Shown here piece by piece: positions 1-35,714 of a stretch of 35,878 nt of DNA. Where the stretch lies: IMG/VR virus record IMGVR_UViG_3300006840_000056, positions 1 through 35,878 of that record, one strand, 5' to 3'. The translations under genes and the position numbers were made by a program. Position 1 is the first letter of the stretch. The number at the start of each line of letters is the position of its first letter. This DNA comes from a virus. The notes below the pieces were generated by a model. It worked only from the letters and a program-made list of their open reading frames with translations, was not told the origin of the DNA and searched no databases.

Positions 1-133
1 CTACTATGGTATCAATGTCAAGTCCGTCAGATGGATATACATTTATATTTTGTACTACTGATTTATTATTTATATTATCAGGCAAGCTGTTGTTAGGTAT
101 TATTCTTCCGCTTTGGCTTGGTACAAATAGTTC
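1..133. repeat. terminal direct repeat, copy 1 (identical to 35746..35878); assembly overlap of a circular or circularly permuted genome
   Basis: Read by eye: ctactatggtatcaatgtcaagtccgtcag...ggtacaaatagttc is identical at both window ends (133 nt). Confidence 0.95.
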
Positions 134-4160: not shown

Positions 4161-4826
4161 TTATAGCTCAATACGACCCTTTTTATTGTAGATGCCTTTC
4201 AGTAGGTTACGAGCATTTGGGGATATGAAGCGGTTTCTACCGCTTTTAACTTTATAACTGTATCCCTCTAATTGCTCGGAATCGTAGTCTACCGCACCTG
4301 CAAAGTAGTCGTTTCCTTTCTCAATTATATACTCAACTTGTGCTAACGTTGCACGTGTTACCGCTTCCGGTATGCTTTTGTACCATTTACTATCACCACT
4401 TAAAAAAGCGTCCTCATCACGTGGGAACTTTCCAAGTTGCTTGATTACATAAAAAGATGTGTTGTCTGGATTTGTAGTCCAATCAGGGCTTACAGTTATT
4501 TTGTTAGATGATTTACTTGACGATACTATGTTACGGGTTTGTCCGCTACCTGTACCGCCAATTATTTCTACCTGACAATAAGTAAAATAGTCGTCAAAAT
4601 GCACCTTTAATGGTGAATCACTTGACGTATCAATTAAATAATTACTGCCACCCGATGTTGCAAGACCAGAATAAACATCGTCTACGTGCTTCACTTGGAA
4701 ACCAACGTAGGCGTCAACCATTTCCTCTGCGTGGGACATTTGGTCTTCTGCCTCTTTAGCATCAGTTACTTGTATGTTGGAAAACTGTTCTATTTCGTCT
4801 TCCGTTACATATTGCCTTTTAGTCAT
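4161..4826 (-). CDS. head-tail connector protein (gp6-like N-terminus, about twice the usual length)
   Basis: The N-terminus MTKRQYVTEDEIEQFSNIQVTDAKEAEDQMSHAEEMVDAYVG looks like phage gp6-type connectors. It is the first gene of the connector block. Confidence 0.6.
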   Translation of the reverse strand: MTKRQYVTEDEIEQFSNIQVTDAKEAEDQMSHAEEMVDAYVGFQVKHVDDVYSGLATSGGSNYLIDTSSDSPLKVHFDDYFTYCQVEIIGGTGSGQTRNIVSSSKSSNKITVSPDWTTNPDNTSFYVIKQLGKFPRDEDAFLSGDSKWYKSIPEAVTRATLAQVEYIIEKGNDYFAGAVDYDSEQLEGYSYKVKSGRNRFISPNARNLLKGIYNKKGRIEL

Positions 4827-4858: not shown

Positions 4859-6346
4859 TTAAACATCTAAATGCTTGTACCACTTTTCGTCTTGCTTTAC
4901 GCCTATGGTTTTATTATCACGGTTATACCAACCTTTATGCTGTCCTGCGTACCAGCTACCCTTACCAACTATTAATGCACTACGGCTTGATGTTCCTGTG
5001 TTGCCACCAGTTAACTTGGCTGGGCGTGTATCTTGGGCGGTGTCCTTACCTGTTATTTTAGCTGTTCTGGTGTCCTGTGCGGTGTCCTGTGCGGTTAGTT
5101 TGGCATTTCTGGTATCGTTAGCCCCTAATATCCCAACCACTTTAGCCGAACGTACACTATTGGCTAAATCACTACCTTTTATTGTTGCACCCCTATTTGT
5201 GTCACTTGTGTCACAACCAACCAACCTTGCATTACGTATATTAGAAAGTGTTTCTATTCCTTTTAGGGTTGCACTTCGGTAATCATTTGCTGTTTCCTTA
5301 CCAATAATGTGGGCGTTCCTTGTATCTTGGGCGGTGTCGTAACCAGTTACTTTAGCGTTACGATTATCATTAACGGTTGTAGCAACACCTGTTAGCTTGG
5401 CATTTCTGTTATCAATAGATGTTTCCTTACCTGTTATTTTAGCCAGTCGGTAATCGTTAGCTTGGGCAACACCTGTTAGTTTGGCGTTCCTTGAACTATT
5501 AACATCTATACTACCCGTAATGTGGGCTGACCTATTGTCGCTGGTGGTGTCAATACCAGTTAACTTGGCTAACCTAACACTACTACTACCACCCTTAACG
5601 GGTATTTTAGCCATTCTAAAAGACGATGTTGTTTGTTTACCAGTTAGCTTTGCGTCCCTTGTATCGTTTTCATTTATACCGCCTGTTAACTTTGCTGGTC
5701 GGTTGTCGTTTGTAGTGACAACACCTGTTAACTTGGCGTTTCTATAATCATTAGCCAAAGCACTACCTGTTAATTTTGCAGAACGGTTATCATTAGAAGT
5801 ATCCTTACCTTTTAGGTATGCACTTCTTTGGGTGTCAGATACCACCCCACCCGTGATAACGGCTGTACGGGCATTGTAGGCGGTTGTTTTTCCGCTTACT
5901 TTCGCATTTCTTGTTGAAAATGCTGTTTCCTTACCTGTTATTTTAGCTTCCCTGTCATCGTAAGCTGTTTCAACACCTGTTATTTTGGCATTTCTGTCTG
6001 AATTGGCTGTGTCTTTACCAGTTATTTTGGCACTTCGTGTATCGTTTGCAGTATCATATCCTGTTAGTTTTGCGGAACGATAATCAAGGGAAGTGTCTTT
6101 ACCGATTATTTTTGCACCTCTGTAGTCGTTAGTGAGTAAACTACCTGCTATCTTAGCCCCTCTGCTATCGTAAGTTGTGGCAGAACCTGATATTTTTGCA
6201 TTTCTATCAGAATTAATATTTGTGCCTACAGTTTCTTCAGTTAGTACAACATATGCCTCACCGTTTATCCAATATTTAAGACTCCCTAACCCTGTGTCGG
6301 GAAGGACAGGCTCTCCATTGTTCCAATATTTGAGGTTTCCAATCAT
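4859..6346 (-). CDS. repeat protein: 30 tandem 14-residue units (consensus x-D-x-R-x-A-K-[IL]-T-G-x-[DE]-T-x), putative fibre
   Basis: I counted 30 consecutive units from SDRNAKISGSATTY to SSRSALIVGKGSWY. The N-terminus has duplicated LKYW(N/I)NGE motifs. The C-terminus is Trp/Tyr-rich (WYAGQHKGWYNRDNKTIGVKQDEKWYKHLDV). Confidence 0.85.
   Translation of the reverse strand: MIGNLKYWNNGEPVLPDTGLGSLKYWINGEAYVVLTEETVGTNINSDRNAKISGSATTYDSRGAKIAGSLLTNDYRGAKIIGKDTSLDYRSAKLTGYDTANDTRSAKITGKDTANSDRNAKITGVETAYDDREAKITGKETAFSTRNAKVSGKTTAYNARTAVITGGVVSDTQRSAYLKGKDTSNDNRSAKLTGSALANDYRNAKLTGVVTTNDNRPAKLTGGINENDTRDAKLTGKQTTSSFRMAKIPVKGGSSSVRLAKLTGIDTTSDNRSAHITGSIDVNSSRNAKLTGVAQANDYRLAKITGKETSIDNRNAKLTGVATTVNDNRNAKVTGYDTAQDTRNAHIIGKETANDYRSATLKGIETLSNIRNARLVGCDTSDTNRGATIKGSDLANSVRSAKVVGILGANDTRNAKLTAQDTAQDTRTAKITGKDTAQDTRPAKLTGGNTGTSSRSALIVGKGSWYAGQHKGWYNRDNKTIGVKQDEKWYKHLDV
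4946..6211 (-). repeat. 42-bp (14-codon) in-frame tandem repeat array, about 30 diverged copies
   Basis: Periodicity is visible in the protein (R-x-A-K every 14 residues) and in the DNA (recurring ttagc/ttggc...acctgtta strings). Confidence 0.85.
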
Positions 6347-6351
6347 AGTTT

Positions 6352-7836
6352 TTAACTCGCTGAAATATCATCAATAAATACATTCCCCGATGAACCCCTG
6401 CATTTGATACGAAGCTCCAAAATTCCATCCTCTGTTATACTCCCAGAAGACGCCACAATACTTTTCTGTGCATAGGAAGTTGTTGGTGTCCACTCTGTCC
6501 AACCTGTGATTTTTTCTCCCATAAAGTAAATTGCCGCTTGTACATCACCATTAAAAGAAGCATCGTCTTTTATGTAAGCAGATAAGGTTTGAGATACGCC
6601 ACTATCGGCTTTGAAAAAGAACGATTGACTAATATAATAAACTGCTGATGTCGGAGTGTATTTTAGACACTCACCACTTCTGGCGTTTGCTGTATCTCTC
6701 TCTGTTGTTCCGTATTCATAGAAACATTTATTTACTCCCGCTGTTTTGAAGTGCTGACATTTTAGACAAGGGTAGTCTCCGTAGTGCCTTGCAGGAGATA
6801 CATAAACATCTGTTGAGTTTCCTGTTCCTGAATATTTATTTACAATGTTGTTTGGACTGTTGCTTAAATAAATACCCCCACTATTACTATTACAAGTTGG
6901 GGTAGTTATGGTGTTGTTTGAACTGTAGTATAAATCAATACCGTAACTATTACTATTACAGGTTGGAGTAGTTATGGTGTTGTTTGAACTGAGTTCTAAA
7001 TAAATACCGTAACTATTACTATTACAGGTTGGAGTAGTTATGGTGTTGTTTGAACTGTAGTATAAATCAATACCGTAACCATTACTATTACAGGTTGGAG
7101 TAGTTATGGTGTTGTTTGGACTGTTGCTTAAATCAATACCCTCACTATTACTATTACAGGTTGGAGTAGTTATGGTGTTGTTTGGACTGTTGCTTAAATA
7201 AATACCATAGTTATATCTCAAAAAATGACATCGTTCTATTTCAACATAACTTTTGCTACTTAAATAGAGTCCATAACCATACCTATTAGCAAAAGTTGAG
7301 TGCATTTGTCTAAAATAAGTCTGCCCATTTTGTGTAGGACCTGATAAATCCCAACCACCAGATATTTTTAACTTACTTGATGAAGTTCCTGAAGCAGAAA
7401 CTGTTTGAACAGCTGTCCAATTGCTTGCCGCTCCTGTACTTGTTATTCCCAATTTCTGTGAAGAAACTCCGCTTTGTGTAGCCCCAGAATAGTTTTTATA
7501 CAGCGTAGCGTGAGTGCTATCCGTAACTGTTATAACTTCCCACCAATTACCATCTCCTCCTTTTATAAAATCACCCAGTCTTACAGAACCATCGGTCTCA
7601 CCACCAGATACAGCATTAACAAAAATTGCACTTGTAGAAACTACTGCCGTATCATTTTGGGTAAAACTCAAAGTTCCTGCTAAATCAATCGGGGCTGGAC
7701 TTTTGGCGACACGAACCTCATCACCACCTGTTAAACCAGTTGACGCTTTAGTTATTGTTTTATAAGGGTTTCCAGCAGAACCATCTCCTGTATCATCGTG
7801 TCCATTTATGTAATCACAATATTTTATATATGCCAT
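6352..7836 (-). CDS. right-handed parallel beta-helix repeat protein with a C-terminal jelly-roll/CBM-like domain (depolymerase-like)
   Basis: The N-terminus DGSAGNPYKTITKASTGLTGGDEVRVAKS is the typical pectate-lyase-fold entry motif. It has 5.5 near-identical 22-aa coils (LSNSPNNTITTPTCNSNSYGID). The C-terminus ends ...GNVFIDDISAS. Confidence 0.8.
   Translation of the reverse strand: MAYIKYCDYINGHDDTGDGSAGNPYKTITKASTGLTGGDEVRVAKSPAPIDLAGTLSFTQNDTAVVSTSAIFVNAVSGGETDGSVRLGDFIKGGDGNWWEVITVTDSTHATLYKNYSGATQSGVSSQKLGITSTGAASNWTAVQTVSASGTSSSKLKISGGWDLSGPTQNGQTYFRQMHSTFANRYGYGLYLSSKSYVEIERCHFLRYNYGIYLSNSPNNTITTPTCNSNSEGIDLSNSPNNTITTPTCNSNGYGIDLYYSSNNTITTPTCNSNSYGIYLELSSNNTITTPTCNSNSYGIDLYYSSNNTITTPTCNSNSGGIYLSNSPNNIVNKYSGTGNSTDVYVSPARHYGDYPCLKCQHFKTAGVNKCFYEYGTTERDTANARSGECLKYTPTSAVYYISQSFFFKADSGVSQTLSAYIKDDASFNGDVQAAIYFMGEKITGWTEWTPTTSYAQKSIVASSGSITEDGILELRIKCRGSSGNVFIDDISAS
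6838..7197 (-). repeat. 66-bp in-frame tandem repeat, about 5.5 near-identical copies
   Basis: ggttggagtagttatggtgttgtttga/gactg... recurs every 66 nt and encodes the 22-residue beta-helix coils. Confidence 0.9.
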
Positions 7837-7837
7837 A

Positions 7838-8254
7838 TTATTTTACCTCCGTAGAAGTGTTAACTAAACACCAGCAATTACTCGGATTATTTTCATCTAC
7901 CCAAAGTTGTAGTCTGTAGTTGGGATAAATTGCCTCAATGAAGACAAATAGTTCTTCGTGTTTTTCGCCGCTGTTATCCTTAACGTCATAACCAATATGA
8001 TGACCAAAGTTAAACCCAATAGGTTTTTCAACGTCATAAAACGCCTTAAATCGTGGTCTTTTTCCACCACTTGGTAAATTAAATGTCCTGTTACCGCTGG
8101 TTAAGAGTGAAAGGGAAGTAATTTCCAAATTATTTTCTTGTACGTATTTTAACAACTTTTGCCACGCCGATGACTCAACGTCGCTTACAAAGTCGTTGTC
8201 TTCTAATATCTGTTGCCCGTTTGATAGAGCAACCTGCCATTTTATAGATTTCAT
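7838..8254 (-). CDS. hypothetical protein
   Basis: 138-aa ORF with an ATG start, tightly packed with its neighbours. No motif recognised. Confidence 0.6.
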   Translation of the reverse strand: MKSIKWQVALSNGQQILEDNDFVSDVESSAWQKLLKYVQENNLEITSLSLLTSGNRTFNLPSGGKRPRFKAFYDVEKPIGFNFGHHIGYDVKDNSGEKHEELFVFIEAIYPNYRLQLWVDENNPSNCWCLVNTSTEVK

Positions 8255-8307: not shown

Positions 8308-8874
8308 TTAGCTGTAGGTTAATTCTATTCTGAACGCAAAAGCTGTCTTTTCACCAACCGAAGCCGGTGACGCTGATACACCTATGTAATAATCGTGTGA
8401 TGTACTTGCAGTGTCGTCGTTCAAAGTTAAAGCTTTACCACTACCTTCTATTTCTGTGAAGTTGGTGTCACCAACTTCAAATGCCCTTACATCTATGTCT
8501 GTAGGTGCGGTTGCTGGTGTAGTACCATCATACGCATAAAATTTAGCATTTGTAGTTGTTACTGCCGAAGTGTGCGAGAAGTTAATTTTTAGTGTAGCTT
8601 CTGCGTTTGTTATTGCGTCAATGTCTTCTGTACCGTCACCCCAGTCTGCTTGTGAGTCGCCACCGCCACCACCTGATTGTGAAATGAACTTCACGTTGTT
8701 AGGTGTATTGCCAGACGAATCGTTAGCACCCACACTACTTTCAACGTGTGTGCTGTCGTTATACGAACCTACCGTAATGGGGCTACCAAAAGTAGCACCT
8801 GCAAATTGTATTTTGTCGGTTGCGTCTATTGTTGTAGGGGTTGCACCCTGTAATGTCCAAGTAAATGTTGCCAT
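8308..8874 (-). CDS. Ser/Thr/Gly-rich hypothetical protein (possible virion decoration protein)
   Basis: 188 aa with a strong SD (GAAAGGCGGTG). Low-complexity T/S/G stretches (SQSGGGGGDSQ, TTPATAPT). Location in the head-proximal island. Confidence 0.55.
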   Translation of the reverse strand: MATFTWTLQGATPTTIDATDKIQFAGATFGSPITVGSYNDSTHVESSVGANDSSGNTPNNVKFISQSGGGGGDSQADWGDGTEDIDAITNAEATLKINFSHTSAVTTTNAKFYAYDGTTPATAPTDIDVRAFEVGDTNFTEIEGSGKALTLNDDTASTSHDYYIGVSASPASVGEKTAFAFRIELTYS

Positions 8875-8892
8875 ATATAATTACACCGCCTT

Positions 8893-9171
8893 TCAAAATA
8901 AATTAAATACTTTATCTTTCATTTTAGTTATTTCTTTTAATGCAATGTCTTTTTCCATATCTTTTTTAACTGCTTTTTGTAATTGGGCTACAAAGTCTTC
9001 CCATTTAATTACGCCCTGCTCGGTGGATATGCCAAAAGGTTTATACCATTTATTCTTACCAGATACTATTTCAACTGACACAACACCACGCTTGTTGGTA
9101 TCGTCCATTTTTATATCCACTATTTTGGCGGTTATCTTACTTAACTTTTGTTCAAATGATAGTTCTGCCAT
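8893..9171 (-). CDS. hypothetical protein
   Basis: 92-aa Lys/Glu-rich ORF with an ATG start. No motif recognised. Confidence 0.6.
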   Translation of the reverse strand: MAELSFEQKLSKITAKIVDIKMDDTNKRGVVSVEIVSGKNKWYKPFGISTEQGVIKWEDFVAQLQKAVKKDMEKDIALKEITKMKDKVFNLF

Positions 9172-9198: not shown

Positions 9199-12183
9199 TT
9201 AAAAACACCTCATAACTTCTTTTGGAATACTACCTGTATACTTTTCTACAGTACCACCCCCGTGTGTAGGTTGTGTCGGGTCGCCTGTTTTCCAGTCGGT
9301 CCAAGTATCTTTTACTGTAAGTCGTGTGTCCCTGTTTTTGTAGAACTCCAATTTGTCTTTAATGTCTTCAGCGTCTTTACAATACCCAAAATGGTGTAAC
9401 TTAATACTATTATCTAATACTCTGCCGTATTTGTCACCTATACGTGTACCACTTACAAGTGTTGGTTCACTTGCGTGTTGCTTGATTTCCAGCCCTTTTT
9501 CGGCAAACCTAAAACATCTAAATAGGTTACTTTCCCACTGACTACCTACGGCTATCATATCTAACGACTTCCAAAAATGTAAATGCTTAAAATAAATAAC
9601 ACCCGCATTGGGGTTTTCACGCATTTTCTTAACTAATTTACGCCAATAATAATCACCCCACACTTCGTCCCCGTCAACAAACAATCCCCAACCTACTTGG
9701 TCAGCTAAATCAATACATTTTTGTCGCAATGCTTCCTTACCACTAACCCACCCCATTTGCTCGTATATTATCTTATTTGGATATTCTTCCATTACCTTGC
9801 GTATTTCCTTTTCAGTATTATCAACACTTAAACCTCTTTCATTAGCACGTGGGTAACGCCTGTCAGCACCCTCAACCACAATTACCTTGTCTACTTCTTT
9901 ACGCTTACATACCGCACGTAATGACGCACCTATGAACTTTTCTTCGTTTAAGACAATAAACATAGGCGTTACTTTTAGTTTTTCGTCTTTTTTCCTGATA
10001 GGTTTAACTATGTTTAACAACTTGTCCTGCATAACCTCAAAATAATGGTCTGTTTTAGGTGTAAGTGGTTTGCTACCAATAGCAAGCCCTAACTTGTCCT
10101 GTAATTCCTGTTTGTCAAAACATTTTGCCTTATACATACCCCCATCATCGTAAATATCCTTTATAGCTGGTAAGTCGTAACACACTACTGGTATACCCAT
10201 TGCCCGTGCTTCCGTAACCCACATACCAAACCCCTCAAAATGTGAACCAGATAACACACATTTACTTTGTGCCATTAGTTTGAACTTTTCCACATCTGAC
10301 AGTTGAGTATGCACCACAACCTTGTCAAACGGTATACCCAATGCCTCTACTTTGTTTATTATGCCGTTATCTTCATTAGTTATTATGTGTAATGTGTGGT
10401 CACGGCTAAACGGCTTAAACGCCCACAATGCTTCTAAAAAGCCCTTTCTTGGGTTATTACGTGATATCATAACTATGTGGTTGCCTCTTGCACGTTTAGT
10501 ACGTTTATCAAACAACTCAACCAACCTACTATTTACTGCGGGGTGTAGTGCTACGATGTATTTCTTGTCTATACCATACCATTTAGCCCAATCGTCAATA
10601 CTGTTTTCTGTCAACACAATTAACTTAAAATCAATTAACTCGTGTAAATGCTTGTCTAAAAAGTCCTTTAACTCGTAGTCCCTTTGTAATTCGTCTTTGG
10701 TACAAACATCACTATTCTCTACCCAAGTAGGTGGGTCAAACATTGTGATATAAACGGGTTTTTTGTATTTAAGCCCCAACCGTAAAGCACACATACTTGC
10801 TTTCGCGGGACTGCCAAAATACGCATTGGCTTCTACATCTAAATCATAAAACGCCTCTGCACCTTTGTATTTTGATTTATTGTCGTGTCCTATTATTCTA
10901 ACTTCGGGCGTTTCGTATAAATCAAAGTCCTTTCTAAATATTGGCATTTCGTTCGTATAAATAACTGTCTTTAGGTTGGATTCGGTTAACATTAATGCCT
11001 GTAACCAACTGTGGTATCTACCGCCAGAATAGAAACGTATATCTTCTGTTAAAAAAGCCACATCAGGTTTATCGTCTGGTATTACCTTGCTGTTTACTTC
11101 CTTTAATACCTTTGCCAACTTTTTAGCCGAGTGTTCTGCTGTCCAATTCTCACTTACCCATTTAGCACCCGCCTTACCTTTTGCCCGTGCTTCGTCTTGG
11201 TGTTCGTATACATAACGCATTTGCTTTTTAAGTGATTCTAAATCGGGTTCAATCATTCTACCCACATCGCTGGGTGCATAGTTTGAGTATACTGCTGGGC
11301 AATCGCCGTTAATGTCTATTTCATAAAAATAATCGGGGTCAAAGTATTCCGACATACCGCTTCCATTAGGTATCAGTACGGGCAGTCCTGTTGCAAGTGC
11401 TTCTAAAGGTGTAAGCCCAAAACCCTCGCCCCTGCTTGGGAATACAAACGCATCTGCTTGGGATAACAGGTCACGCATTTGCTGGTAACTGTATTCGGCT
11501 TTTATTACATCTATGTTAGGGTACTGGTCTTTTAATAATGGGAACGGCGGTTTATTGTGTATGGTTTTGAATATCATCTTAACTGGCTCGTCAATACCGA
11601 ACTCTTGGGTAAACGCCTTAAAAACCAAATCAAAGCCCTTTCTTATATTAAAAGCATTGTAATGTAAAAAGGTAAACACGTCGTGCTTTGGGCGTTCAAT
11701 ATATCTGTATTCTTCGTGGTTATACCCCAAAGGTACTACTGTTGTTTCTATGCCACGTGTGGCAAACATTTCTTGGCAGAACTCACTTGGAACAATTACC
11801 TTATCGGCTCTTTTTAAGTGCCTAACCCAGCTTGTAGGTATGGTGGTGCTTTCAAACATTGAATATATTACTTTAATGGGTGTTTTTAGTCGGTCTGCAA
11901 ATACAGGCGTGTAATAACACATACCTATGTTTTGCCCGTCGTATTTTTTGCTAATATTAACACCGTGTTTTTTTAGGTGTTTCATTAAATATGCTTGACT
12001 TTGCCCGTACCCGTCAGGGCGGTCAGTAGAGGTTAACAAATATACTGGTAAACCAGCACTTGTATCTTGTTTATTAATTGTCTTGGGCTGTTCATCTAAT
12101 AAAGTAAAACCACGCCTTAAAAGCTGTTCAACCTTACTGCTTGAAACACCCACGATTTGCCCAGAAGGATTACGTAAAAACAT
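9199..12183 (-). CDS. three-domain glycosyltransferase (GT-B/GT4-like + GT-B/GT4-like + GT-A/GT2-like)
   Basis: Two E-x7-E type GT4 signatures are present: PSRGEGFGLTPLEALATGLPVL and SGSHFEGFGMWVTEARAMGIPVV. The C-terminal domain (VTPMFIVLNEEKFIGASLRAV...VVEGAD...FVDGDEVW) has a DxD motif typical of GT2. Confidence 0.8.
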   Translation of the reverse strand: MFLRNPSGQIVGVSSSKVEQLLRRGFTLLDEQPKTINKQDTSAGLPVYLLTSTDRPDGYGQSQAYLMKHLKKHGVNISKKYDGQNIGMCYYTPVFADRLKTPIKVIYSMFESTTIPTSWVRHLKRADKVIVPSEFCQEMFATRGIETTVVPLGYNHEEYRYIERPKHDVFTFLHYNAFNIRKGFDLVFKAFTQEFGIDEPVKMIFKTIHNKPPFPLLKDQYPNIDVIKAEYSYQQMRDLLSQADAFVFPSRGEGFGLTPLEALATGLPVLIPNGSGMSEYFDPDYFYEIDINGDCPAVYSNYAPSDVGRMIEPDLESLKKQMRYVYEHQDEARAKGKAGAKWVSENWTAEHSAKKLAKVLKEVNSKVIPDDKPDVAFLTEDIRFYSGGRYHSWLQALMLTESNLKTVIYTNEMPIFRKDFDLYETPEVRIIGHDNKSKYKGAEAFYDLDVEANAYFGSPAKASMCALRLGLKYKKPVYITMFDPPTWVENSDVCTKDELQRDYELKDFLDKHLHELIDFKLIVLTENSIDDWAKWYGIDKKYIVALHPAVNSRLVELFDKRTKRARGNHIVMISRNNPRKGFLEALWAFKPFSRDHTLHIITNEDNGIINKVEALGIPFDKVVVHTQLSDVEKFKLMAQSKCVLSGSHFEGFGMWVTEARAMGIPVVCYDLPAIKDIYDDGGMYKAKCFDKQELQDKLGLAIGSKPLTPKTDHYFEVMQDKLLNIVKPIRKKDEKLKVTPMFIVLNEEKFIGASLRAVCKRKEVDKVIVVEGADRRYPRANERGLSVDNTEKEIRKVMEEYPNKIIYEQMGWVSGKEALRQKCIDLADQVGWGLFVDGDEVWGDYYWRKLVKKMRENPNAGVIYFKHLHFWKSLDMIAVGSQWESNLFRCFRFAEKGLEIKQHASEPTLVSGTRIGDKYGRVLDNSIKLHHFGYCKDAEDIKDKLEFYKNRDTRLTVKDTWTDWKTGDPTQPTHGGGTVEKYTGSIPKEVMRCF

Positions 12184-12224: not shown

Positions 12225-12258
12225 CAATACACAAAATGCCCCACCGAAGTGAGGCATT
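12225..12258 (-). terminator. rho-independent terminator after the major capsid gene
   Basis: Minus strand AATGCCTCAC-TTCG-GTGGGGCATT (10-bp stem, UUCG loop) followed by TTTGTGTATT. Confidence 0.7.
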
Positions 12259-12282
12259 CTGCTTTATTCAGTTGTTAGTACC

Positions 12283-13224
12283 TTACGCATCTACTGCGGG
12301 TTGGTGTGCGATAGCAACCATCAATTCAGGTCTAATGGTCTTAACTCCGTAAAGGATATCAAGCGTACATTGTAAACCAAGTCCTGATTTATCGTATCCA
12401 ATAGTGCTTCTGATAGCCAAGCCACTCTCTGCGTCTTGAACAGTCATTTGGCTTACGCCATTTCCGTTACCCCAGTCAGGTAATGGTCTGACCGCCAGAA
12501 CAAGAGCATCGCTACCATAAACGATTGGGTAATAAGTGTCAGGTGACGTACTGTCATCAACACCTACAACTTGTGATTCAAACAAGTTAATACCCGCCAG
12601 TTTTTCAACTGAAGCGTCTAAAAGCGGTTTGTTATTTCCGAATTGTGACGCATCTTCAATACCAGTCTCGTTAAGGATTTCTTCAACCGCATACTCGTCA
12701 AGCTGTGCGAACATAGGTGCGAACTTTGGTAACTTGTTAGTTACTAGGGTTCGTCTAGCTCTTACCAACGCCTTTTTCCAACCAGTAAAGTCGGTATAGT
12801 CAAGCGTTGTACCAGCGTTTGCGTATTCATCGGCAATATCCTGTTCCACCTGTTCAGCGATAACTGCAACCGCATCTCTAATGTAAGCCTCTAACACTGC
12901 TGGGATAGACACTGCTTTCGCAACGTCCTCAATCATAAAGGTTACTTCCTTATGCTTGTTAAGTACCACCTGCACTACATCATCATCAGGTGCTTGTACT
13001 GTAACATTAGTTTTAGCTGTCTTATCGTTTACTTCAAGTGTTCCTCTTACTGGAATATCCAATGTAGTACCTCTGCTTGCGAAATCGCCAGAATAATCCT
13101 TTCTAACGGTTCTTGCAAGGTTTAGGTACTTTCTTAAATAATCAAGTCCCTCGTTTGCTGACCTAACCATTATTTCAGGTATATGATTAGCAAGTTCGGT
13201 TTGTCCTATTGCTGTATATGGCAT
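12283..13224 (-). CDS. major capsid protein
   Basis: 313 aa with a strong SD (GAAAGGTGGTGAAATAAAATATG). It lies directly after the scaffold gene and is followed by a strong terminator, which fits a highly expressed late gene. Confidence 0.8.
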   Translation of the reverse strand: MPYTAIGQTELANHIPEIMVRSANEGLDYLRKYLNLARTVRKDYSGDFASRGTTLDIPVRGTLEVNDKTAKTNVTVQAPDDDVVQVVLNKHKEVTFMIEDVAKAVSIPAVLEAYIRDAVAVIAEQVEQDIADEYANAGTTLDYTDFTGWKKALVRARRTLVTNKLPKFAPMFAQLDEYAVEEILNETGIEDASQFGNNKPLLDASVEKLAGINLFESQVVGVDDSTSPDTYYPIVYGSDALVLAVRPLPDWGNGNGVSQMTVQDAESGLAIRSTIGYDKSGLGLQCTLDILYGVKTIRPELMVAIAHQPAVDA

Positions 13225-13280: not shown

Positions 13281-13913
13281 CTACTCATTGTAATTAATAC
13301 GTCCTTCTTTTTTAGCTTTTTCAATTTCTTCCTTATGCTCGGTATACCATTTATTGTCTCTTGACTGTCTTTCTATCTCTGACCATTTCCAAAACTGTGC
13401 TTTGCTTCCTGTATCAGCTGTGGTTGGTGTACCGATGTTCTTTTTATCGGGTTCAGCGAGTAAGTATGGTTTAGCAGTTAGTAATTCAGATACTACGGTG
13501 TTGGCGTTTGCTATGTTGCCCTCTGCATCTACTTCAATAGTGTTAAGGTCAATCAAGCGTACAACGTCATCAAGGGCTTCCTTACGTACGCCCTGTGCAA
13601 CTGCTTGTGAAATAACAGCTTGTCTTTTCGTCTGATTAACGATTTGCTGTTTTAAGCTCTCGTTTTCAGCTTGGTACTTGTCAGCAAGTTCCTTAAACGC
13701 TTCTTTTTCTTTTAACTTTTCTTCTTCGGCTTTGGCTTGGTCGGCTTTTAGCTTTTCAAGTTCCTTTGCTTTTGCAGTTAAATCCTTAAAGCGTGGGTGC
13801 TTAAACGCAAGTTCCCATTGTTCGTCTGTTAATTCTACTTCTTCGCTTTTAGATTGACCCTTCGGTTGTTTAACGTCTTCCGTAGACGGGGTTTCTTCTT
13901 TTTTTTCTTCCAT
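13281..13913 (-). CDS. head scaffolding protein
   Basis: Lys/Glu-rich coiled-coil sequence (KAKELEKLKADQAKAEEEKLKEKEAFKELADKYQAENESLKQQ) between the gp7-like and capsid genes. Start taken at ATG 13913. The track's GTG 13934 is the SD itself (GTGAAAGGTGGTG). Confidence 0.75.
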   Translation of the reverse strand: MEEKKEETPSTEDVKQPKGQSKSEEVELTDEQWELAFKHPRFKDLTAKAKELEKLKADQAKAEEEKLKEKEAFKELADKYQAENESLKQQIVNQTKRQAVISQAVAQGVRKEALDDVVRLIDLNTIEVDAEGNIANANTVVSELLTAKPYLLAEPDKKNIGTPTTADTGSKAQFWKWSEIERQSRDNKWYTEHKEEIEKAKKEGRINYNE

Positions 13914-13978
13914 TTTCAAATCACCACCTTTCACTTGGTAACGGGGTTGTGTCCCCGTAAAGTAGTTTAATATATATA

Positions 13979-18825: not shown

Positions 18826-19204
18826 TGTATAATTCCTCTAATTGCCAACTTTTTAATGGTTTAACATCTGCTTTGGCTTGGCGACGTATTTCGTTTAATT
18901 CGTCTAACACTTCCTGCCCGTAGGTTTTTAACATAAATTGCGTATAAGGTACGGGGTTTTTGTTGTGTTCCCAATTACAGCTTGAACATTGCGGGTGGAC
19001 ATTTTTCGGACACCACCTTAATTGTTTAATGTCCCTTGATATGTAATGCCCCACCTGTAACCCAAAAGGGTTGTTTTGTGGGTGAAACCAGTCTATTGCC
19101 TTACCACAAGTAACACACACTTTCGGGTACTCGGCTTTTAACCTATCCCTTACTTTATCGTCTAACTTATCAATGGTTTTTTGGCGTTCGCTTTTTTTAG
19201 CCAT
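18809..19204 (-). CDS. ninG: NinG/Rap-like recombination endonuclease
   Basis: CVTCGKAIDW...VGHYISRD..QLRW...NVHPQCSSCNWEHNKNPVPYTQFMLKTYGQEVLDEL aligns by eye with lambda NinG CISCG...AGHYRT...LRF...[36 protein letters not shown]. Confidence 0.75.
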   Translation of the reverse strand: MAKKSERQKTIDKLDDKVRDRLKAEYPKVCVTCGKAIDWFHPQNNPFGLQVGHYISRDIKQLRWCPKNVHPQCSSCNWEHNKNPVPYTQFMLKTYGQEVLDELNEIRRQAKADVKPLKSWQLEELYNEQNK

Positions 19205-20207
19205 TTAATTGTGCCTCTACCATTAATTGTACCAGTTCTTTGAACTTTGTTGTAGGTTGCCACCCCAATTCCTTGTATGCTTTGGTGTAATCGCCTACTA
19301 ATAAATCAACTTCTGCTGGTCGGTAGTATTTAGGGTTAACCTTAACTACGGTTTGCCCGTGCTGGTTAATACCTACTTCGTCTAACCCCTGCCCTTTCCA
19401 AGTAATATCCCAGTCTAATTGTCGGGCGGTTTCTTCTACGAATTCCCTAACCGAGTGGGTTTCGCCTGTGGCTATTACATAATCATCTGGCTGTGGGGCT
19501 TGTAGCATTGCCCACATAGCTTGTACATAGTCCCCAGCAAAACCCCAATCCCTTTTACTGTCTAAGTTGCCCAGTTCAACACACTCTCTTTCACGTTTCC
19601 AAACCTCTACCATTTGTTTTACTATCTTTTTAGTTACAAACTGCTCACCCCTGCGTGGGCTTTCGTGGTTGAATAAAATACCATTACAGGCAAACATATC
19701 GTAAGCCTCACGATAATTGCGGGTAATCCAATATCCAAATAGCTTACTTGCCCCGTATGGTGAACGTATATTCATAGGTGTATTTTCATTTTGTGGCACT
19801 TCTGCAACCTTTCCAAACATTTCACTACTACTGGCTTGATAGAACTTTATAGTTGGATCTATCTGCCTAATGGCTTCTAACATTCTCAATACACCAACGC
19901 CCGTTATATCTGCTGTCTGAAGTGGTAGTTTGAACGAAGCACCTACATCTGACTGCGAAGCCAAATTATACACTTCTGTAGGCTTAAAATTAGCAATCAA
20001 TGATATTAGACTGCTAATGTCCTGCAAATCCCCATACGCCAACGAAAAATCACTGACACCTACTAAATGCTTTATTCTTGATAAATTATCGGTGCTGGTC
20101 CTGCGGTACATTCCGCACACTTGATAACCTTTCTTCAGTAAGAACTCTATTAAATATGATGCATCCTGTCCGGTTGCACCGGTAACCAATGCTCTTTTTT
20201 TATTCAT
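19197..20207 (-). CDS. gmd: GDP-mannose 4,6-dehydratase
   Basis: ALVTGATGQDASYL (GxxGxxG). The stretch YNLASQSDVGASF...KFYQASSSEMFG...RSPYGASKL...YREAYDMFACNGILFNHESPRRGEQFVTKKI matches the GMD family throughout, including the S/T-Y-K catalytic residues and the NHESPRRG box. Confidence 0.9.
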   Translation of the reverse strand: MNKKRALVTGATGQDASYLIEFLLKKGYQVCGMYRRTSTDNLSRIKHLVGVSDFSLAYGDLQDISSLISLIANFKPTEVYNLASQSDVGASFKLPLQTADITGVGVLRMLEAIRQIDPTIKFYQASSSEMFGKVAEVPQNENTPMNIRSPYGASKLFGYWITRNYREAYDMFACNGILFNHESPRRGEQFVTKKIVKQMVEVWKRERECVELGNLDSKRDWGFAGDYVQAMWAMLQAPQPDDYVIATGETHSVREFVEETARQLDWDITWKGQGLDEVGINQHGQTVVKVNPKYYRPAEVDLLVGDYTKAYKELGWQPTTKFKELVQLMVEAQLNG

Positions 20208-21727: not shown

Positions 21728-22258
21728 TTATCCTTCAACAACCACTCCCAATGCTGTTAAGAAGTCATCTATTTGGTTCTTTTTTATTTTTGTATTCCCA
21801 TTTCTTCCATAGAACTTGGCGTGATAGAAGTCAACACCTTTCAAGTTAGCACCTTCCAAGTTAGCACCTATCAAGTAAGCATCTCTCAAGTCAGCATCTA
21901 CTAAGTTAGCACCTTCCAAGTCAGCACCTACCAAGTAAGCATCTCTCAAGTTAGCACCTATCAAGTTAGTACCTCTCAAGTCAGCATCTCCCAAGTAAGC
22001 ATCTCTCAAGTTAGCACCTATCAAGTTAGCACCTCCCAAACAAGCATCTCTCAAGTCAGCATCTCCCAAGTAAGCATCTCTCAAGTCAACATTTCTACTA
22101 ACTGCTTCTTCTACTGCTTCCTTTAAAGTAGTCTTATCACTCTCAAAGAGAACTTCTCCTGCAAGTGTCTTTATCTGCAACTTATTAGACTCTTCCTTTT
22201 CTACTTGACTTTTTATTAACTCATATGTTTCATCTGAAACTGTTATTGTTTTAGTCAT
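21728..22258 (-). CDS. pentapeptide-repeat protein
   Basis: About 19 consecutive A(D/N)LXX pentapeptides: DLRDAYLGDADLRDACLGGANLIGANLRDAYLGDADLRGTNLIGANLRDAYLVGADLEGANLVDADLRDAYLIGANLEGANLKGVDF. The DNA shows the matching 15/30-nt periodicity (caagttagcacct...). Confidence 0.9.
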   Translation of the reverse strand: MTKTITVSDETYELIKSQVEKEESNKLQIKTLAGEVLFESDKTTLKEAVEEAVSRNVDLRDAYLGDADLRDACLGGANLIGANLRDAYLGDADLRGTNLIGANLRDAYLVGADLEGANLVDADLRDAYLIGANLEGANLKGVDFYHAKFYGRNGNTKIKKNQIDDFLTALGVVVEG

Positions 22259-31049: not shown

Positions 31050-31282
31050 TTTCTGGTTACCCCCAAATATGTGGCTATTGCACCAACTATAGTAGAAAAT
31101 ACGGCTTGAAATACTGCAAGGTTAGACACCCTTTCAGTAGTAGCAACCTGTTTATTTTCTACCTCGTCTAACTTTTTACAATAAGTATCAGTAGCCTTTT
31201 CTAACTTGGAAATCGTAGCACTTATATTCTTTATTTCGTTTTTAATTACGGCTATGTCGGTTGCCAAGTCTTTTTGTGTCAT
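31046..31282 (-). CDS. xhlA: XhlA-like lysis-associated protein (coiled coil plus C-terminal TM)
   Basis: The architecture matches PBSX XhlA: an N-terminal coiled coil (IAVIKNEIKNISATISKLEKATD...) and a C-terminal TM (LAVFQAVFSTIVGAIATYLG). Confidence 0.55.
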   Translation of the reverse strand: MTQKDLATDIAVIKNEIKNISATISKLEKATDTYCKKLDEVENKQVATTERVSNLAVFQAVFSTIVGAIATYLGVTRK

Positions 31283-32553
31283 ATAAACATAAAGTTGCTG
31301 TGTTGCAACGAATTTAATTTAATAAAAGCTACTGTCCTATATTCTGGTTCGTTAGATGAAGAAGAAGCCGATATGTTAGCACTTGATATTGTAGGTGATT
31401 GACTATTAGCAGATATAGAGTGTGTGGTTGCTGTTGTTGCCATTAAACCACCAGCATCACTATCTCTACCTGTTTGTCCTGCGTGTGTTACCGAGCCTGT
31501 ATGTGTATGTGCTAAACTACCACCGTGATTGTGTGACTGTGCTGTGTGGGTATGTGTGTTTGAACCACCAGTATCTCCTACATCTCCTGCTGTAGCAGTT
31601 GATTTTAAGTGTCTACTTCTCATATCAGTTGTTCCGTTTGTGCCATCACACAAAAGATAATTATTTGGAATGTTTGCCAAAGTTCCTAACCACATACCTA
31701 TCATTCCTTTTCTACAACTTGATGAGCCTGTATTTTGGTTTTGTATTGTTAATAGTTTTGTATATGCTGGTTCTATAGTACCCGATGCTGTAAATGACAG
31801 AGTACCCCCCAAACTAGTTGTGTTGGCGTTTGGTGATGCAGAGTGTGTGTGTGTTTTAAGTGGTAAGGTGTTTGGGTCTACTGCTCCCTGTTTTGTACCA
31901 CTATCACTTGATGCTGGAACTGTTACAGCAGAGTGTGTGTGTGTTTGTGTATGTGCGTGGGTTACTGTGTGTACGTTAGTTGTACTACCACCCGTACTAC
32001 CTGCATTTGCACCTGCGTTAGCACCTTTTAGGTATTTGTTAACCAGATTGGGTGTTGAGTTATTACCGTTACAAACATAATGTCCTGCTTTACTGTCCGT
32101 GCTGTCATATAAGTAAATTGCTTTATCAGGAAAGTATATTTGATTAGAAGTTGGTGTTATAAATATAACTGTGTGGTATGGCGGGTCGTTTGAAAATGAT
32201 TGCCAAGTTGGTGCTACTGATTGAACACTTGCACCTGTAACACCCCCAGAGGTAACGGAACTGTGGTTATGGTTATATATAATAGTATATTGGTCGCCAA
32301 ACTGTGAATTTACCCCGCCACCACTACCTGTGCCAATAGTTAAAGTATGTGTATGTGTGCCTATTGTATGTGTGTGTGAAGCTGTTGATGTATGTGTGTG
32401 TGTAGCATTACCACCTGTATCATTAGGATTAGTTGCATTAGCAGTACCTTTAGGATATTTACCATCAAGAGTAGTAACTCTTTCCCAACCAGATGGGATA
32501 GATGCGTTTGTTCCTGACCAAATGTAAATTACTCCTGCTGGAAAGTTAGCCAT
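31279..32553 (-). CDS. tail fibre protein with three tail-collar-like modules, each followed by His-Thr (HxH) arrays
   Basis: Module 1: GVIYIWSGTNASIPSGWERV...THTHTSTASHTHTIGTHTHTL. Module 2: AIYLYDS...GHYVCNGNNSTPNLVNKYLKG...VHTVTHAHTQTHTHS. Module 3: MIGMWLGTLANIPNNYLLCDGTNGTTDMRSRHLK...NTHTHTAQSHNHGGSLAHTHTGSVTH. Start at ATG 32553 (SD GGAAGGGA, TAATG overlap). Confidence 0.75.
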   Translation of the reverse strand: MANFPAGVIYIWSGTNASIPSGWERVTTLDGKYPKGTANATNPNDTGGNATHTHTSTASHTHTIGTHTHTLTIGTGSGGGVNSQFGDQYTIIYNHNHSSVTSGGVTGASVQSVAPTWQSFSNDPPYHTVIFITPTSNQIYFPDKAIYLYDSTDSKAGHYVCNGNNSTPNLVNKYLKGANAGANAGSTGGSTTNVHTVTHAHTQTHTHSAVTVPASSDSGTKQGAVDPNTLPLKTHTHSASPNANTTSLGGTLSFTASGTIEPAYTKLLTIQNQNTGSSSCRKGMIGMWLGTLANIPNNYLLCDGTNGTTDMRSRHLKSTATAGDVGDTGGSNTHTHTAQSHNHGGSLAHTHTGSVTHAGQTGRDSDAGGLMATTATTHSISANSQSPTISSANISASSSSNEPEYRTVAFIKLNSLQHSNFMFI

Positions 32554-32738
32554 TATTTCCCTTCCCGATACTCTACGACTTCTGCCAACAGCCAAAAGGG
32601 TTTATCAATTATCTTTTTAGCTCTTTCTAAAGCATTTTCGTAGGTGGTATCTATTAACCTAATTACTACCTTATCTTCCAAGTTACCTAACTGGTCTATC
32701 TTTTCGTACCCAACTATGTGGAATATTAAATAGGTCAC
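32553..32738 (-). CDS. hypothetical protein
   Basis: 61 aa with a GTG start in a GTGA overlap. Confidence 0.5.
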   Translation of the reverse strand: MTYLIFHIVGYEKIDQLGNLEDKVVIRLIDTTYENALERAKKIIDKPFWLLAEVVEYREGK

Positions 32739-33580
32739 GATAAAGTCATTCCCTGTCCAATTATGTAGCCCTCAAAACGCCCGTCTGACTTTATCTTAAA
32801 GCCAAACACATCTGCTTTACTTGCGGTTGTGGTTAATACTGGTGTAACGTTGTTATCCCAGTCAATATTAGCCCACCAAGTAACTGTCCTTGAACCGTTT
32901 CCGTCTTGGATTAGCTTAATAATGAATTCGTCACCTACTTGGTAATTCTCTAACGCCAAAGTTCTGTTACCACCTAATGTTACTTGTATTGCCCTGTCTT
33001 CCACATCAAATGTAACTGTAGCCCCGTCACTTGCTGTTGCATAAACACCGCTTTTCTTTATGTTTATTGCTCTAACTCGCATATCGGTTATGTTAGCGTT
33101 GGTTATTTCTGACACGCCCGAACCTACTGCAACATTAGCCAACCTTAAAAACGGATTACTTGCACCTATTGCTGTTGATATATCATTATCGCTTGGTGCT
33201 GTTGGTGATGCACTTGGAGTACCTGCTACCACACCTAATTTAGCCACGTTAGTAACTGTTGCGTTTGGTGATTCGGCAGTATCTATTAAAAGAACTACTG
33301 CGTCTATCCTACTGTTACCTGAAGCATTGGCAGATATGGTTGCGTTTTCTGTACTACTGTACATTCTAACTGGGAACACCTTTGAGCCGTCCGAGTTTTT
33401 AATAAAAGCATAGCCCAAATTAACCTTAACAGTCATATTTGGTGTACTCTGTGCTTCTACATAAAAATCACCACCAACAGCAATGCTTTTAACACCGCTT
33501 TGGTCTATTATGTGTGTCATCAGAAAATCCAGCATTTCTTCTGGGTGTTCTGTTCCACCTGTACGTGTTGTTTGTATCAT
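32735..33580 (-). CDS. putative tail fibre / receptor-binding protein
   Basis: 281 aa in the distal tail block. The pattern ...RIDAVVLLIDTA...VAGTPSASPTAP...LRLANVAVGSGVSEITNANITDMR is common in Firmicutes-phage fibre proteins. Weak call. Confidence 0.45.
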   Translation of the reverse strand: MIQTTRTGGTEHPEEMLDFLMTHIIDQSGVKSIAVGGDFYVEAQSTPNMTVKVNLGYAFIKNSDGSKVFPVRMYSSTENATISANASGNSRIDAVVLLIDTAESPNATVTNVAKLGVVAGTPSASPTAPSDNDISTAIGASNPFLRLANVAVGSGVSEITNANITDMRVRAINIKKSGVYATASDGATVTFDVEDRAIQVTLGGNRTLALENYQVGDEFIIKLIQDGNGSRTVTWWANIDWDNNVTPVLTTTASKADVFGFKIKSDGRFEGYIIGQGMTLS

Positions 33581-33619
33581 ATTATTTTCCTTTCTTTAAT
33601 TATACCAATTAATTACTAT

Positions 33620-33847
33620 TTAATGAACAGCCACCCACGAACCATTAGCCCTTACCATTAACTTATCTGTGGTGGTATTGTAAAACAACTGCCCATCTTC
33701 ACCACTTGCTGGATTACTTGCACCAGTAGGCACACGAAAAGTTCCCTCGTCTGGTATGGTTAGGTTAACAATCAAACCCCTTGTTTGTAGGTTTTTTATG
33801 TCCTGTTCCATTTTCTTTATTTTTTCAATAATATTATAGTTTTCCAT
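33620..33847 (-). CDS. small tail-fibre-associated protein
   Basis: N-terminal coiled coil plus GQLFYNTTTDKLMVRANGSWVAV, a motif frequent at fibre N-termini. Confidence 0.45.
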   Translation of the reverse strand: MENYNIIEKIKKMEQDIKNLQTRGLIVNLTIPDEGTFRVPTGASNPASGEDGQLFYNTTTDKLMVRANGSWVAVH

Positions 33848-34884
33848 TAGTATTCCCTAAATGTTATACCTACCTCACCTGTTTCGTTACAGGTACGTCT
33901 ATTGACCCTGTAACTGCTGTTTATATCGTAAGACGGTATAACAACATTTAACCAATCACCTACAGCGTAATTATTAAAAATAGGTTCATCGTACCTGCAA
34001 GTTAAATAAATAGTTAAACGTGGTGCTTGGTATATTTCTAAATGCTTATCGCCCTTATCTTCTAAAGTTGTCTGTACGCTGACATCTGATTCATTTAATA
34101 CATCTTGCAGTAAAAAGAACGCTTCCTTATATGTATTACTTGCGTCACGCGTGACAACTAACTGATTATCCTCATCAACCCCACTACCTATTACGATAAC
34201 CTGATTAACCATACCATCAATAAATGTTTTACTTATTTGATATGTGTTAATGTTAAAGTCTTCTTCTAAATAAATGTTCCTTGTAGTGCCTTTGGGGTAG
34301 TAAATATTGAACTTTTTATCAGCGTCAACATCAAAATCATATCCGTCTTTAACTTCATTTGCCGACATTTTTTTAATGACTTCTGCTATGTTTTTATATC
34401 TTAAATCAGTCCTGTCCCTGTTTTTAGTGGTTGGGTCTGCACCCCTTGTAATACCCAAATCACCATACGCCCCATTAGTTTGGGTATAATTAATTAAACC
34501 CCAAGCTATATCAGAGCTATCGGTTGCTGTATAAGAAAGACTATCATCAGTATATCGTTTTTCCAATAAGCTAAAAAAACCTTTGCTTTGTACTGATATT
34601 GTACCTAATTGCCCAACACCAGAATTGAATTGTAGCTCTGAAATATACCCCGCATATATTTTATTGTCTTCCTCATCGTATATTTCTATTTCCCTGTAAC
34701 TTGCACTAAAAATGTATTCAATGGTAATATCGTGTGCGTCTGCAATAGGTTTAATGGCTGTACTTTCAAACGTAATACTTAACGATTCACCTTTGTTAAG
34801 TTCCTGCTCAATATTAAAACCAACAAAAGGTAGTTCCCATATAAGCGAATCGTCGCTATTTTTTACTACACATCTAAATGTCAT
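33847..34884 (-). CDS. tail-associated protein (Tal / prophage-tail N-terminal-domain-like)
   Basis: 345 aa immediately after Dit in the TMP-Dit-Tal order, with ATGA overlaps. Confidence 0.6.
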   Translation of the reverse strand: MTFRCVVKNSDDSLIWELPFVGFNIEQELNKGESLSITFESTAIKPIADAHDITIEYIFSASYREIEIYDEEDNKIYAGYISELQFNSGVGQLGTISVQSKGFFSLLEKRYTDDSLSYTATDSSDIAWGLINYTQTNGAYGDLGITRGADPTTKNRDRTDLRYKNIAEVIKKMSANEVKDGYDFDVDADKKFNIYYPKGTTRNIYLEEDFNINTYQISKTFIDGMVNQVIVIGSGVDEDNQLVVTRDASNTYKEAFFLLQDVLNESDVSVQTTLEDKGDKHLEIYQAPRLTIYLTCRYDEPIFNNYAVGDWLNVVIPSYDINSSYRVNRRTCNETGEVGITFREY

Positions 34885-35714
34885 AAACCTAAATAACTAT
34901 CCCTGTAGGTTATTAGCACCAAAGCATTATAACCGTACGTAGTAGCAGTTAACTTAATACCATTACTCCCAGCGTCCAAAGACAACCAATCCCCACTAAA
35001 ATATTGTCTTAAATTGGTAGTTCCGTTTAATATAATTGTCCTATTAAAAGTGTCTATTACAACCTGCGATGCGTCTGCTATTTCGTAGTCAAGTGAAAAC
35101 GTGTCGCCGTTCGTTTCGTTTGTTAAAGTAGCATCTTCTAACTGTCCGTATAATGTAATTATTGGGTACGATTTGGTGTTGCCGTCATTAACTACGTTGG
35201 CAACAACATCACCACCGCAAGACATATCCAAAGGTAACTCAAAAGGCAAACCCCAACCACCGCCCGACCATAAAGATATTAACGAACTTTTTTGGTCTTT
35301 GCTATTAAAAAATGGGTATGGTGCGGTTAGTTCTAACCTTACCGAACTAAATATCATTTGCCCTTTGGTGTAAGGCAAATCAAAATCACCTGTAACAATA
35401 GCGTCACATATAACCTCAATACCTGAACGTGTGGTAATGTAAATCCTTTGTAAGCCCCGTGTAATATCACAAGCCAATTCTAATGCTCGTCTTTTTGTTT
35501 CGTAGTCGGTTGTGTTTTTACCTATTATTTCCAACTCAATACCCATAACACGTCTGCCGTATAATTTAACGCCTAAATCAGCCCCGTGTGTGCTTCCTCG
35601 TTCTTTTATATCTACTTTTAGTGACGGGAAGCCGAACCCAGTTAAGTTACCGAATATGTAACCTGATTCTAAAGTTCCCATTGTTAAATTGTATATTTGT
35701 ATTGTTTTTATCAT
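34881..35714 (-). CDS. distal tail protein (Dit, siphovirus tail component)
   Basis: 277 aa. Its start overlaps the tape measure stop (ATGA). The position is conserved in siphoviruses. Confidence 0.7.
   Translation of the reverse strand: MIKTIQIYNLTMGTLESGYIFGNLTGFGFPSLKVDIKERGSTHGADLGVKLYGRRVMGIELEIIGKNTTDYETKRRALELACDITRGLQRIYITTRSGIEVICDAIVTGDFDLPYTKGQMIFSSVRLELTAPYPFFNSKDQKSSLISLWSGGGWGLPFELPLDMSCGGDVVANVVNDGNTKSYPIITLYGQLEDATLTNETNGDTFSLDYEIADASQVVIDTFNRTIILNGTTNLRQYFSGDWLSLDAGSNGIKLTATTYGYNALVLITYRDSYLGL

Follow-up and report, generated by a model that had tools for sequence, protein, structure and literature searches.

Phage fibres determine what a phage adheres to, and few repeat folds are known to build their shafts. 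In the triple beta-spiral shafts of adenovirus fibre and reovirus sigma-1, each repeat takes about 15–16 residues. The extra fibres of lambda (Stf) and T5 (pb1) are dispensable, carry exchangeable distal domains and speed adsorption by reversible glycan binding, and in the exosporium of Bacillus the protein BclA joins a collagen-like stalk of variable length to a C1q-like head and is attached to a small basal-layer protein. On phages, T4 Hoc, phi29 gp8.5, SPP1 gp12 and T5 pb10 are accessory capsid adhesins or head fibres (PMC7602432). Here we describe a protein with 30 consecutive repeats, nearly all of 14 residues, encoded by a phage genome from IMG/VR (record IMGVR_UViG_3300006840_000056, positions 1 to 35,878); this whole stretch of 35,878 nucleotides (nt) is called the window below. 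The repeat family is of an undescribed type, known so far only from uncultured phages, and its genes lie behind two small genes, here named o188 and o138. Modular phage fibres as such are known; the new features are the repeat, its obligate partner genes and an apparent anchoring by the C terminus.

The repeat array

The repeat protein is encoded by a complete open reading frame (ORF) of 495 amino acids (aa) plus stop at 4859..6346 on the minus strand, the strand of every part of the gene given below. With R-x-A as the anchor, its array comprises 30 units (aa 45–465; 4952..6214) with the consensus N-D-x-R-x-A-K-[IL]-T-G-K-D-T-A. An earlier note on this DNA had placed the same array at 4946..6211, in a slightly shifted register, and had described the 14-residue units as uninterrupted and their Arg, Ala and Gly as strictly conserved. 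The 30 consecutive units are confirmed, but 14 residues are found in 29/30 of them and 15 in unit 20 (IDNRNAKLTGVATTV, 5372..5416), so "uninterrupted" is too strong. Arg at position 4 and Ala at position 6 are indeed present in 30/30 units, but Gly at position 10 in 28/30, with Val in its place in unit 15 and Ala in unit 27. Position 8 holds Ile, Leu or Val throughout (30/30), position 7 is Lys in 22/30 units and position 13 is Thr in 20/30, and the units as a whole are Thr/Ser-rich.

The 14-residue periodicity is far beyond chance. Residue identity within the protein is 0.44 at lag 14 against ~0.05 at other lags, and the longest chain of R-x-A anchors at exact 14-residue spacing runs to 20, against a maximum of 3 across 2000 shuffles. 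Autocorrelation peaks only at 14, 28 and 42, and no collagen-like G-X-Y, pentapeptide or hexapeptide periodicity was found. N-glycosylation sequons (N-D-T) were considered as a feature of the array and rejected, being confined to a minority of units. At the DNA level the units have a mean pairwise identity of 51% (maximum 79%), Tandem Repeats Finder reports no 42-nt array in the window, and the invariant Arg is encoded by both codon families (AGR in 18 units, CGN in 12). Diverged copies with mixed Arg codons indicate selection on the protein. It is an old array, maintained as protein, and not a product of recent slippage, just as the earlier note had argued from the divergence of the copies.

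A family from uncultured phages

The 14-mer had been assigned to no known repeat family, and searches with hidden Markov models (HMMs) and against known structures leave it there, with no significant match to any characterised family. No Pfam family, phage fibre repeat models included, matches the repeat protein at E≤1; NCBIfam gives FlbB alone (19 bits against a cut-off of 110), and PHROG only phrog_26055, which has no function label (E=0.0035). In PDB, phmmer with the single sequence finds nothing at E≤10, and a 53-sequence repeat profile finds only a spurious match to ribosomal L29. A protein scan of GTDB genomes yielded neither a relative nor a host, and a literature search on a 14-residue phage fibre repeat, and on DUF2341 in phages, returned nothing relevant. 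A DNA pattern meant for scanning genomes matches the window and six IMG/VR contigs.

Metagenomic proteins give a very different picture of abundance. A word-indexed search returned 34 homologues, and a ten-unit profile searched against 1.84 billion representatives at 50% identity returned 701 proteins of up to 2193 aa at E≤1e-3, of which 174 reach E≤1e-30. The family consensus, N-[SD]-x-R-x-A-K-[ILV]-T-G-K-D-T-A, is nearly that of the window. Among 139 members, anchors are spaced by exactly 14 residues in 85% of ~2600 gaps and by another multiple of 14 in ~9%, the number of strict units has a median of 21 and a maximum of 60 (homologues range from 12 to 60), and the sequence past the last unit is at most 60 aa in 76%. 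Homologues are laid out as a variable lectin-like or beta-helix head, then the array, then a short C-terminal tail. The domains N-terminal to the array include Laminin_G_3/DUF2341, F5/8 type C, Beta_helix/NosD and fn3, as well as several without a Pfam match. In some homologues (P0005, P0035 and P0045) an internal domain is flanked by arrays, so the array acts like a spacer that separates modules.

With its 495 aa, the window protein ranks among the shortest members. Where homologues have heads of 150–670 aa, it has a 44-aa stub (6215..6346), for which no homologue was found, and it is, on its sequence, a headless version of the larger family. The stub carries LKYWNNGE (aa 5–12; 6311..6334) and LKYWINGE (aa 23–30; 6257..6280), and the last 31 residues of the protein hold three W-Y dipeptides; the duplicated motif and the Trp/Tyr-rich C terminus had both been noticed earlier and are present as described.

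Directly upstream, between o138 and the repeat gene, a right-handed beta-helix protein is encoded at 6352..7836 on the minus strand (NosD/Beta_helix in Pfam). NosD/Beta_helix domains are embedded within the repeat protein P0045, which suggests that the separate beta-helix protein of the window may act as the missing head. The beta-helix gene has a good ribosome-binding site of its own; the repeat gene is without a Shine-Dalgarno sequence, and its ATG lies 5 nt past the beta-helix stop. A frameshift fusion of the two genes was considered and ruled out: 8 codons before the ATG, the frame of the repeat gene is closed by two stops, and no slippery site is present. Within the beta-helix gene itself, a 66-nt (22-aa) parallel beta-helix repeat is present 5.5 times (6846..7206, minus strand) at 90% DNA identity and looks recently expanded, unlike the old, diverged 42-nt units adjoining it.

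Exchangeable N termini and backbone-specific tails

Close relatives of the window's phage separate the two ends of the protein. The head-tail adaptors of three of them (L004, L009 and L010) are 89–91% identical to that of the window. Against L009, nucleotide identity below position 5418 is 89%, a stretch that takes in the remaining units, the tail and the adaptor gene; above ~5680 it is 67–77% in the array, and the N-terminal domains are unrelated. This places an approximate recombination breakpoint zone within the array, at 5418..5680 on the minus strand. Similarly, the last ~155 residues of P0057 are 97–100% identical to the window protein, behind a 670-aa N-terminal domain; comparing repeat number between the two, as the earlier note had proposed for related phages, gives 30 units in the window and ~25 in P0057. 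P0001, with a LamG head, and P0046, with another domain, also combine the window's tail with other heads.

The tail of the window protein (aa 466–495; 4862..4951), 97% identical to that of P0057, belongs to a W-Y class that is restricted to the window's phage backbone and its adaptor. Other tail classes go with other backbones: P-Y with that of L001/L006, ...TIL with a Mu gp36-like downstream gene (66% identity between L002 and L015), ...DG.ITLG with that of L007/L012, and FIFVD with an SU10-like podovirus backbone (L008). In the close relative L010 (161..685), the C-terminal motif W-Y-x-R-D-x-K-x-I-G-E-K-Q-D-E-K is present three times, so that the tail is itself a short repeat of variable copy number.

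Because the tail is kept with the neck genes while the N-terminal domains swap, the C-tail is more likely the attachment end. The simplest reading would be that it is a backbone-specific attachment element and that the N terminus is the exchangeable distal end. This speaks against the earlier suggestion that the Trp/Tyr-rich C terminus binds carbohydrate: tail class tracks backbone, the tail is inherited together with neck genes, and the Laminin_G_3/DUF2341, F5/8 type C and beta-helix domains stand N-terminal to the array or inside it instead.

Lambda Stf and T5 pb1 resemble the proposed fibre as dispensable extra fibres with exchangeable distal domains, but they are anchored N-terminally at the tail, use different repeats and come without a cassette. 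The capsid adhesins are non-essential, elongated, encoded in the head module and projecting, and they promote binding to cell-surface carbohydrates (PMC7602432), features that the proposed fibre would share. In Hoc, three Ig-like domains are N-terminal and a non-Ig fourth domain sits on the capsid (PMC7602432, structure section), which is the polarity proposed here, although the same article elsewhere gives the capsid-binding domain of Hoc as N-terminal. The building blocks of the capsid adhesins are Ig domains, a helical supercoil and collagen-like repeats, without sequence similarity to the window protein, and none has been reported with obligate partner genes like o188 and o138.

A cassette of three linked genes

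The partner genes are encoded on the minus strand at 8308..8874 (o188, 188 aa, the first gene of the cassette) and 7838..8254 (o138, 138 aa, the second, between o188 and the repeat gene). Both lie upstream of the repeat gene on the same strand in the window, and this arrangement is seen in 11/11 loci with enough sequence. Taking o188 as the starting point gives the same result. A 14-periodic repeat protein is found downstream in 32/32 IMG/VR loci with at least 4 kb of downstream sequence, 26 of them with strict-motif proteins (counted within 3.5 kb) and six with divergent flavours, and o138 is present in 42/43 IMG/VR o188 loci with at least 1.5 kb. L016 and L017, found via o188, also hold repeat proteins, and in a divergent branch (L064) the Arg of the repeat is lost. 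Hence, o188, o138 and the fibre gene form a strictly linked mobile cassette. Some cassettes have a tandem pair of repeat-protein genes (L012, 4717..9070; L016, 14243..20570), and in L016 a CBM96 protein and two ~600-aa proteins stand between o138 and the long fibre.

The conservation of o188 is unusual. It is 52–97% identical across phages with unrelated head genes, and 55–75% identical to the ORF that closely precedes the repeat gene where a phage's capsid and portal proteins are of other families. The o188 family comprises 627 clusters, nearly all of 187–190 aa, ~70% identical and all unnamed, with no match in Pfam, PHROG, NCBIfam, PDB (by sequence and by profile, spurious low-complexity hits aside) or cultured phages. 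o138 is more variable (31–45% identical across loci), has no family or structure match, and carries an N-terminal W-x-V-x-L-S-N-G motif. Since o188 is kept while backbones and even translation signals differ, it more likely contacts something within the cassette than something in the backbone. In the window, o188 is preceded by the ribosome-binding motif TGAAAGGCGGTG (8884..8895, minus strand). The exact motif TGAAAGGYGGTG has five copies in the genome, before the genes of the major tail protein, o188, the major capsid protein, the scaffold and SSB; sharing it with such genes, o188 is probably made in large amounts, as read from this one genome. Most related phages (L001–L018) have A/T-rich leaders without Shine-Dalgarno sequences, whereas the window uses strong ones, and the cassette is therefore shared among phages whose hosts probably differ widely.

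A variable-unit stalk, a globular head and a dedicated small partner protein also make up the design logic of BclA, and the head of homologue P0042 has a weak, below-threshold match to BclA_C. There is no G-X-Y here, however, the carrier is a phage and not a spore, and the polarity is the other one.

In the window, the minus strand carries, in the order in which they are transcribed, the large terminase, the portal, a minor head protein, the scaffold, the major capsid protein (12283..13224), a 994-aa glycosyltransferase protein, a 92-aa ORF, o188, o138, the beta-helix protein, the repeat protein, the head-tail adaptor (4161..4826, immediately downstream of the repeat gene), connectors and the major tail protein. 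Dit, a Tal-like protein and two tail or tail-fibre-like proteins are encoded at 31279..35714. Since the phage has an ordinary tail-tip set elsewhere, the gene of the repeat protein counts as an additional one, located in the head-to-neck region. The repeat gene lies within the late structural region in every locus examined, usually between the portal/capsid genes and the neck (adaptor) genes; the position of the cassette in most backbones is behind the capsid gene or between it and the portal gene.

Predicted structure

The earlier note had called for structure prediction and expected a very regular solenoid or fibre. AlphaFold2 models of the single chain give a mean predicted local distance difference test (pLDDT) score of 52 and a predicted template modelling (pTM) score of 0.31 for the full protein with 31 sequences, and 59 and 0.46 for a ten-unit fragment with a register-shifted alignment of 53 fragments. 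Both models place one 6–7-residue strand (positions 6–12) in each unit, in a parallel stack, with a bridge at position 2. The array is probably a beta-rich, stacked rod in these models. A shaft is the most reasonable reading, given that the array spaces domains; the stacked strands that would make it a regular solenoid are predicted only at pLDDT 52–59.

Among known shafts, the triple beta-spiral, an intertwined homotrimer, is alike in its short, strict repeat with a conserved Gly (here in 28/30 units), in forming a viral fibre shaft with a globular head, and in a unit number that differs between relatives. It is unlike the window array in period, which here is 14 residues in 29/30 units and across 85% of the spacings in the family; in hydrophobic pattern, with only position 8 consistently hydrophobic here, no alternation, and an invariant Arg; and in polarity, which is apparently turned round here: head at the N terminus, anchor at the C terminus. 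Searches by sequence, profile and fold gave no match to it.

A proposed accessory fibre and its alternatives

We favour, if only modestly, the reading that the 30 units are the shaft of a modular accessory virion fibre, anchored by its C terminus and encoded as the third member of a mobile cassette. The units would form a rigid, beta-rich shaft on the particle, and the short aromatic C-terminal tail would attach it to a backbone-specific site of the virion, at the head or neck. The array would extend outward as a spacer, its length fixed by how many units it has. At the N terminus of most relatives, a lectin-like or beta-helix head that can be exchanged would bind surface glycans and aid adsorption; in the window copy, with its 44-residue stub and no head, the separate beta-helix gene directly upstream may do the head's job. 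Both o188 and o138 would be required for building or completing the fibre. We infer virion association from the gene context, and glycan binding and the roles of o188 and o138 are likewise proposals.

Several observations weigh against this reading. The cassette stands behind baseplate or tail genes in two backbones, those of L001/L006 and L017, and a tail location would fit this too. The conservation of o188 is beyond what a simple fibre model explains. Both AlphaFold models are of low confidence, all Foldseek matches in PDB have E≥1, with generic solenoids at the top, and a fold search against BFVD gives no match below E=0.25. The headless window copy could be a decaying or functionally different variant. 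The proposed polarity, which comes from comparison and not from structure, would be opposite to that of classical tail fibres. Finally, a tblastn search of 50,697 phage records, with the repeat protein, two homologues and o188 as queries, found no cultured phage with the gene; the homologue P0035 gave only compositional matches of 23–27% in these records.

Of the alternatives, the one that survives best, while still improbable in our view, is that the array is a multivalent docking scaffold or ruler: each unit would bind a copy or small oligomer of o188, giving an o188-coated filament whose length follows from the number of units. The strict co-occurrence of o188 with a 14-periodic protein (11/11 and 32/32 loci) fits well, as does the ~70% identity of o188 across unrelated capsid and portal families, which makes a partner within the cassette probable. 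A strong motif at o188 and none at the fibre gene would mean a large excess of o188 over fibre, and the few positions that do not vary in the repeat (Arg, Gly and a hydrophobic one) would be in keeping with a binding site that recurs unit by unit. A purely structural repeat would equally give an invariant Arg and Gly, however, the Arg is lost in the L064 branch, and high expression of o188 is read from a single genome. Nor do the units covary as contacts would: correlations between units at the same position reflect lineage, and mutual information between repeat positions, tried as a contact signal, was rejected as showing lineage-specific flavours only. A bolder version, in which the cassette builds a self-contained, o188-coated appendage of programmable length that is retargeted to unrelated phages by a change of C-tail alone, seems to us equally improbable.

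Slightly less credible again is a conventional receptor-binding tail fibre, with its N terminus on the baseplate and the aromatic C-tail as a distal, carbohydrate-binding tip. Short aromatic-rich repeats are able to bind sugars, the cassette stands after baseplate, Collar or Phage_tail_fib genes in L001/L006 and L017, and P0005 and P0007 have in common a conserved N-terminal domain of 165 aa. Yet most backbones place the gene between portal/capsid and adaptor genes, and Dit, Tal and fibre genes form a set of their own in this genome. Near-identical phages retain the C-tail and exchange the N terminus, the N-terminal domains are of lectin or beta-helix types, and the class of the C-tail tracks the backbone.

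We give still less credence to a non-virion product released or displayed at lysis, whether a beta-roll that binds matrix, ice or cell surfaces or a substrate of the glycosyltransferase. The ice-binding beta-roll of the ryegrass Lolium perenne (3ULT, PF21300) has 14–15 residues per coil, the same period as here, is similarly rich in Thr, Ser, Asn and Gly, and compares with the one stacked strand per unit that AlphaFold gives for the window protein. One homologue, P0091, has a sub-threshold match to PF21300 (23.4 bits against a cut-off of 30), and 3ULT is among the non-significant Foldseek matches (E=5, TM 0.17–0.19). The Thr/Ser-rich units, the three-domain glycosyltransferase just upstream and the sugar enzymes of L007 and L018 would suit a glycosylated product. 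The grass protein, however, has a 7-residue half-repeat and no Arg, and is monomeric and non-viral, and the window protein has no PF21300 match even at E≤1. Moreover, the sequence of the repeat protein shows neither a signal peptide nor a membrane segment, the gene is in the late structural region at all loci examined, and most cassettes have no glycosyltransferases nearby. As for a meaningless low-complexity ORF or recent replication slippage, repetitiveness alone would suggest it, and it is refuted by DNA units of ~51% identity with mixed Arg codon families and by hundreds of diverged homologues in the same register; the ORF of 495 codons in a genome of 38% GC also speaks against it.

Neighbouring genes and other features

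The window ends in an exact 133-bp terminal overlap (1..133 = 35746..35878), indicating a complete circular assembly of 35,745 bp. The synteny of relatives continues across the window ends, and the tape-measure gene spans the junction. Compared with cultured phages, the capsid protein has one distant match only, at 25% identity.

Directly after the capsid gene, the 994-aa glycosyltransferase protein (9199..12183, minus strand) has three domains, two of GT4 type and one of GT2. A nucleotide-sugar epimerase is encoded at 19197..20207, and sugar enzymes also occur in the related L007 and L018; glycosylation of the virion or fibre is possible. A strong 14-bp stem-loop (12231..12262, minus strand) lies directly after the major capsid gene and may be an attenuator between capsid expression and that of the downstream glycosyltransferase and cassette. 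The scaffold ORF is listed from a GTG start (13281..13934, minus strand), and a strong ribosome-binding motif lies inside it at 13922..13933 on the same strand; the true start is probably a few codons downstream of the listed GTG. In the early or replication region, a 15-nt tandem repeat (21828..22088) underlies a pentapeptide-repeat protein of 176 aa (21728..22258, minus strand; PF00805, E=4e-41).

Implications

The ~700 representative proteins that carry this shaft repeat are without a Pfam model, a solved structure or a cultured phage. They are organised on modular rules, with a head that can be exchanged, a spacer with a countable number of units and a plug specific to the backbone. Two obligate partner genes go with them, and the product of one, o188, is unusually conserved for a phage protein, probably abundant and deserving of a structure. 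Should the cassette build an o188-coated appendage, phages would possess a type of portable surface organelle that has not been described in them. If the accessory-fibre reading is true, the repeat would offer a new structural fold to solve and a natural plug-and-play display scaffold, and the cassette would be a marker for tracking the horizontal exchange of adhesion modules among unrelated phages.

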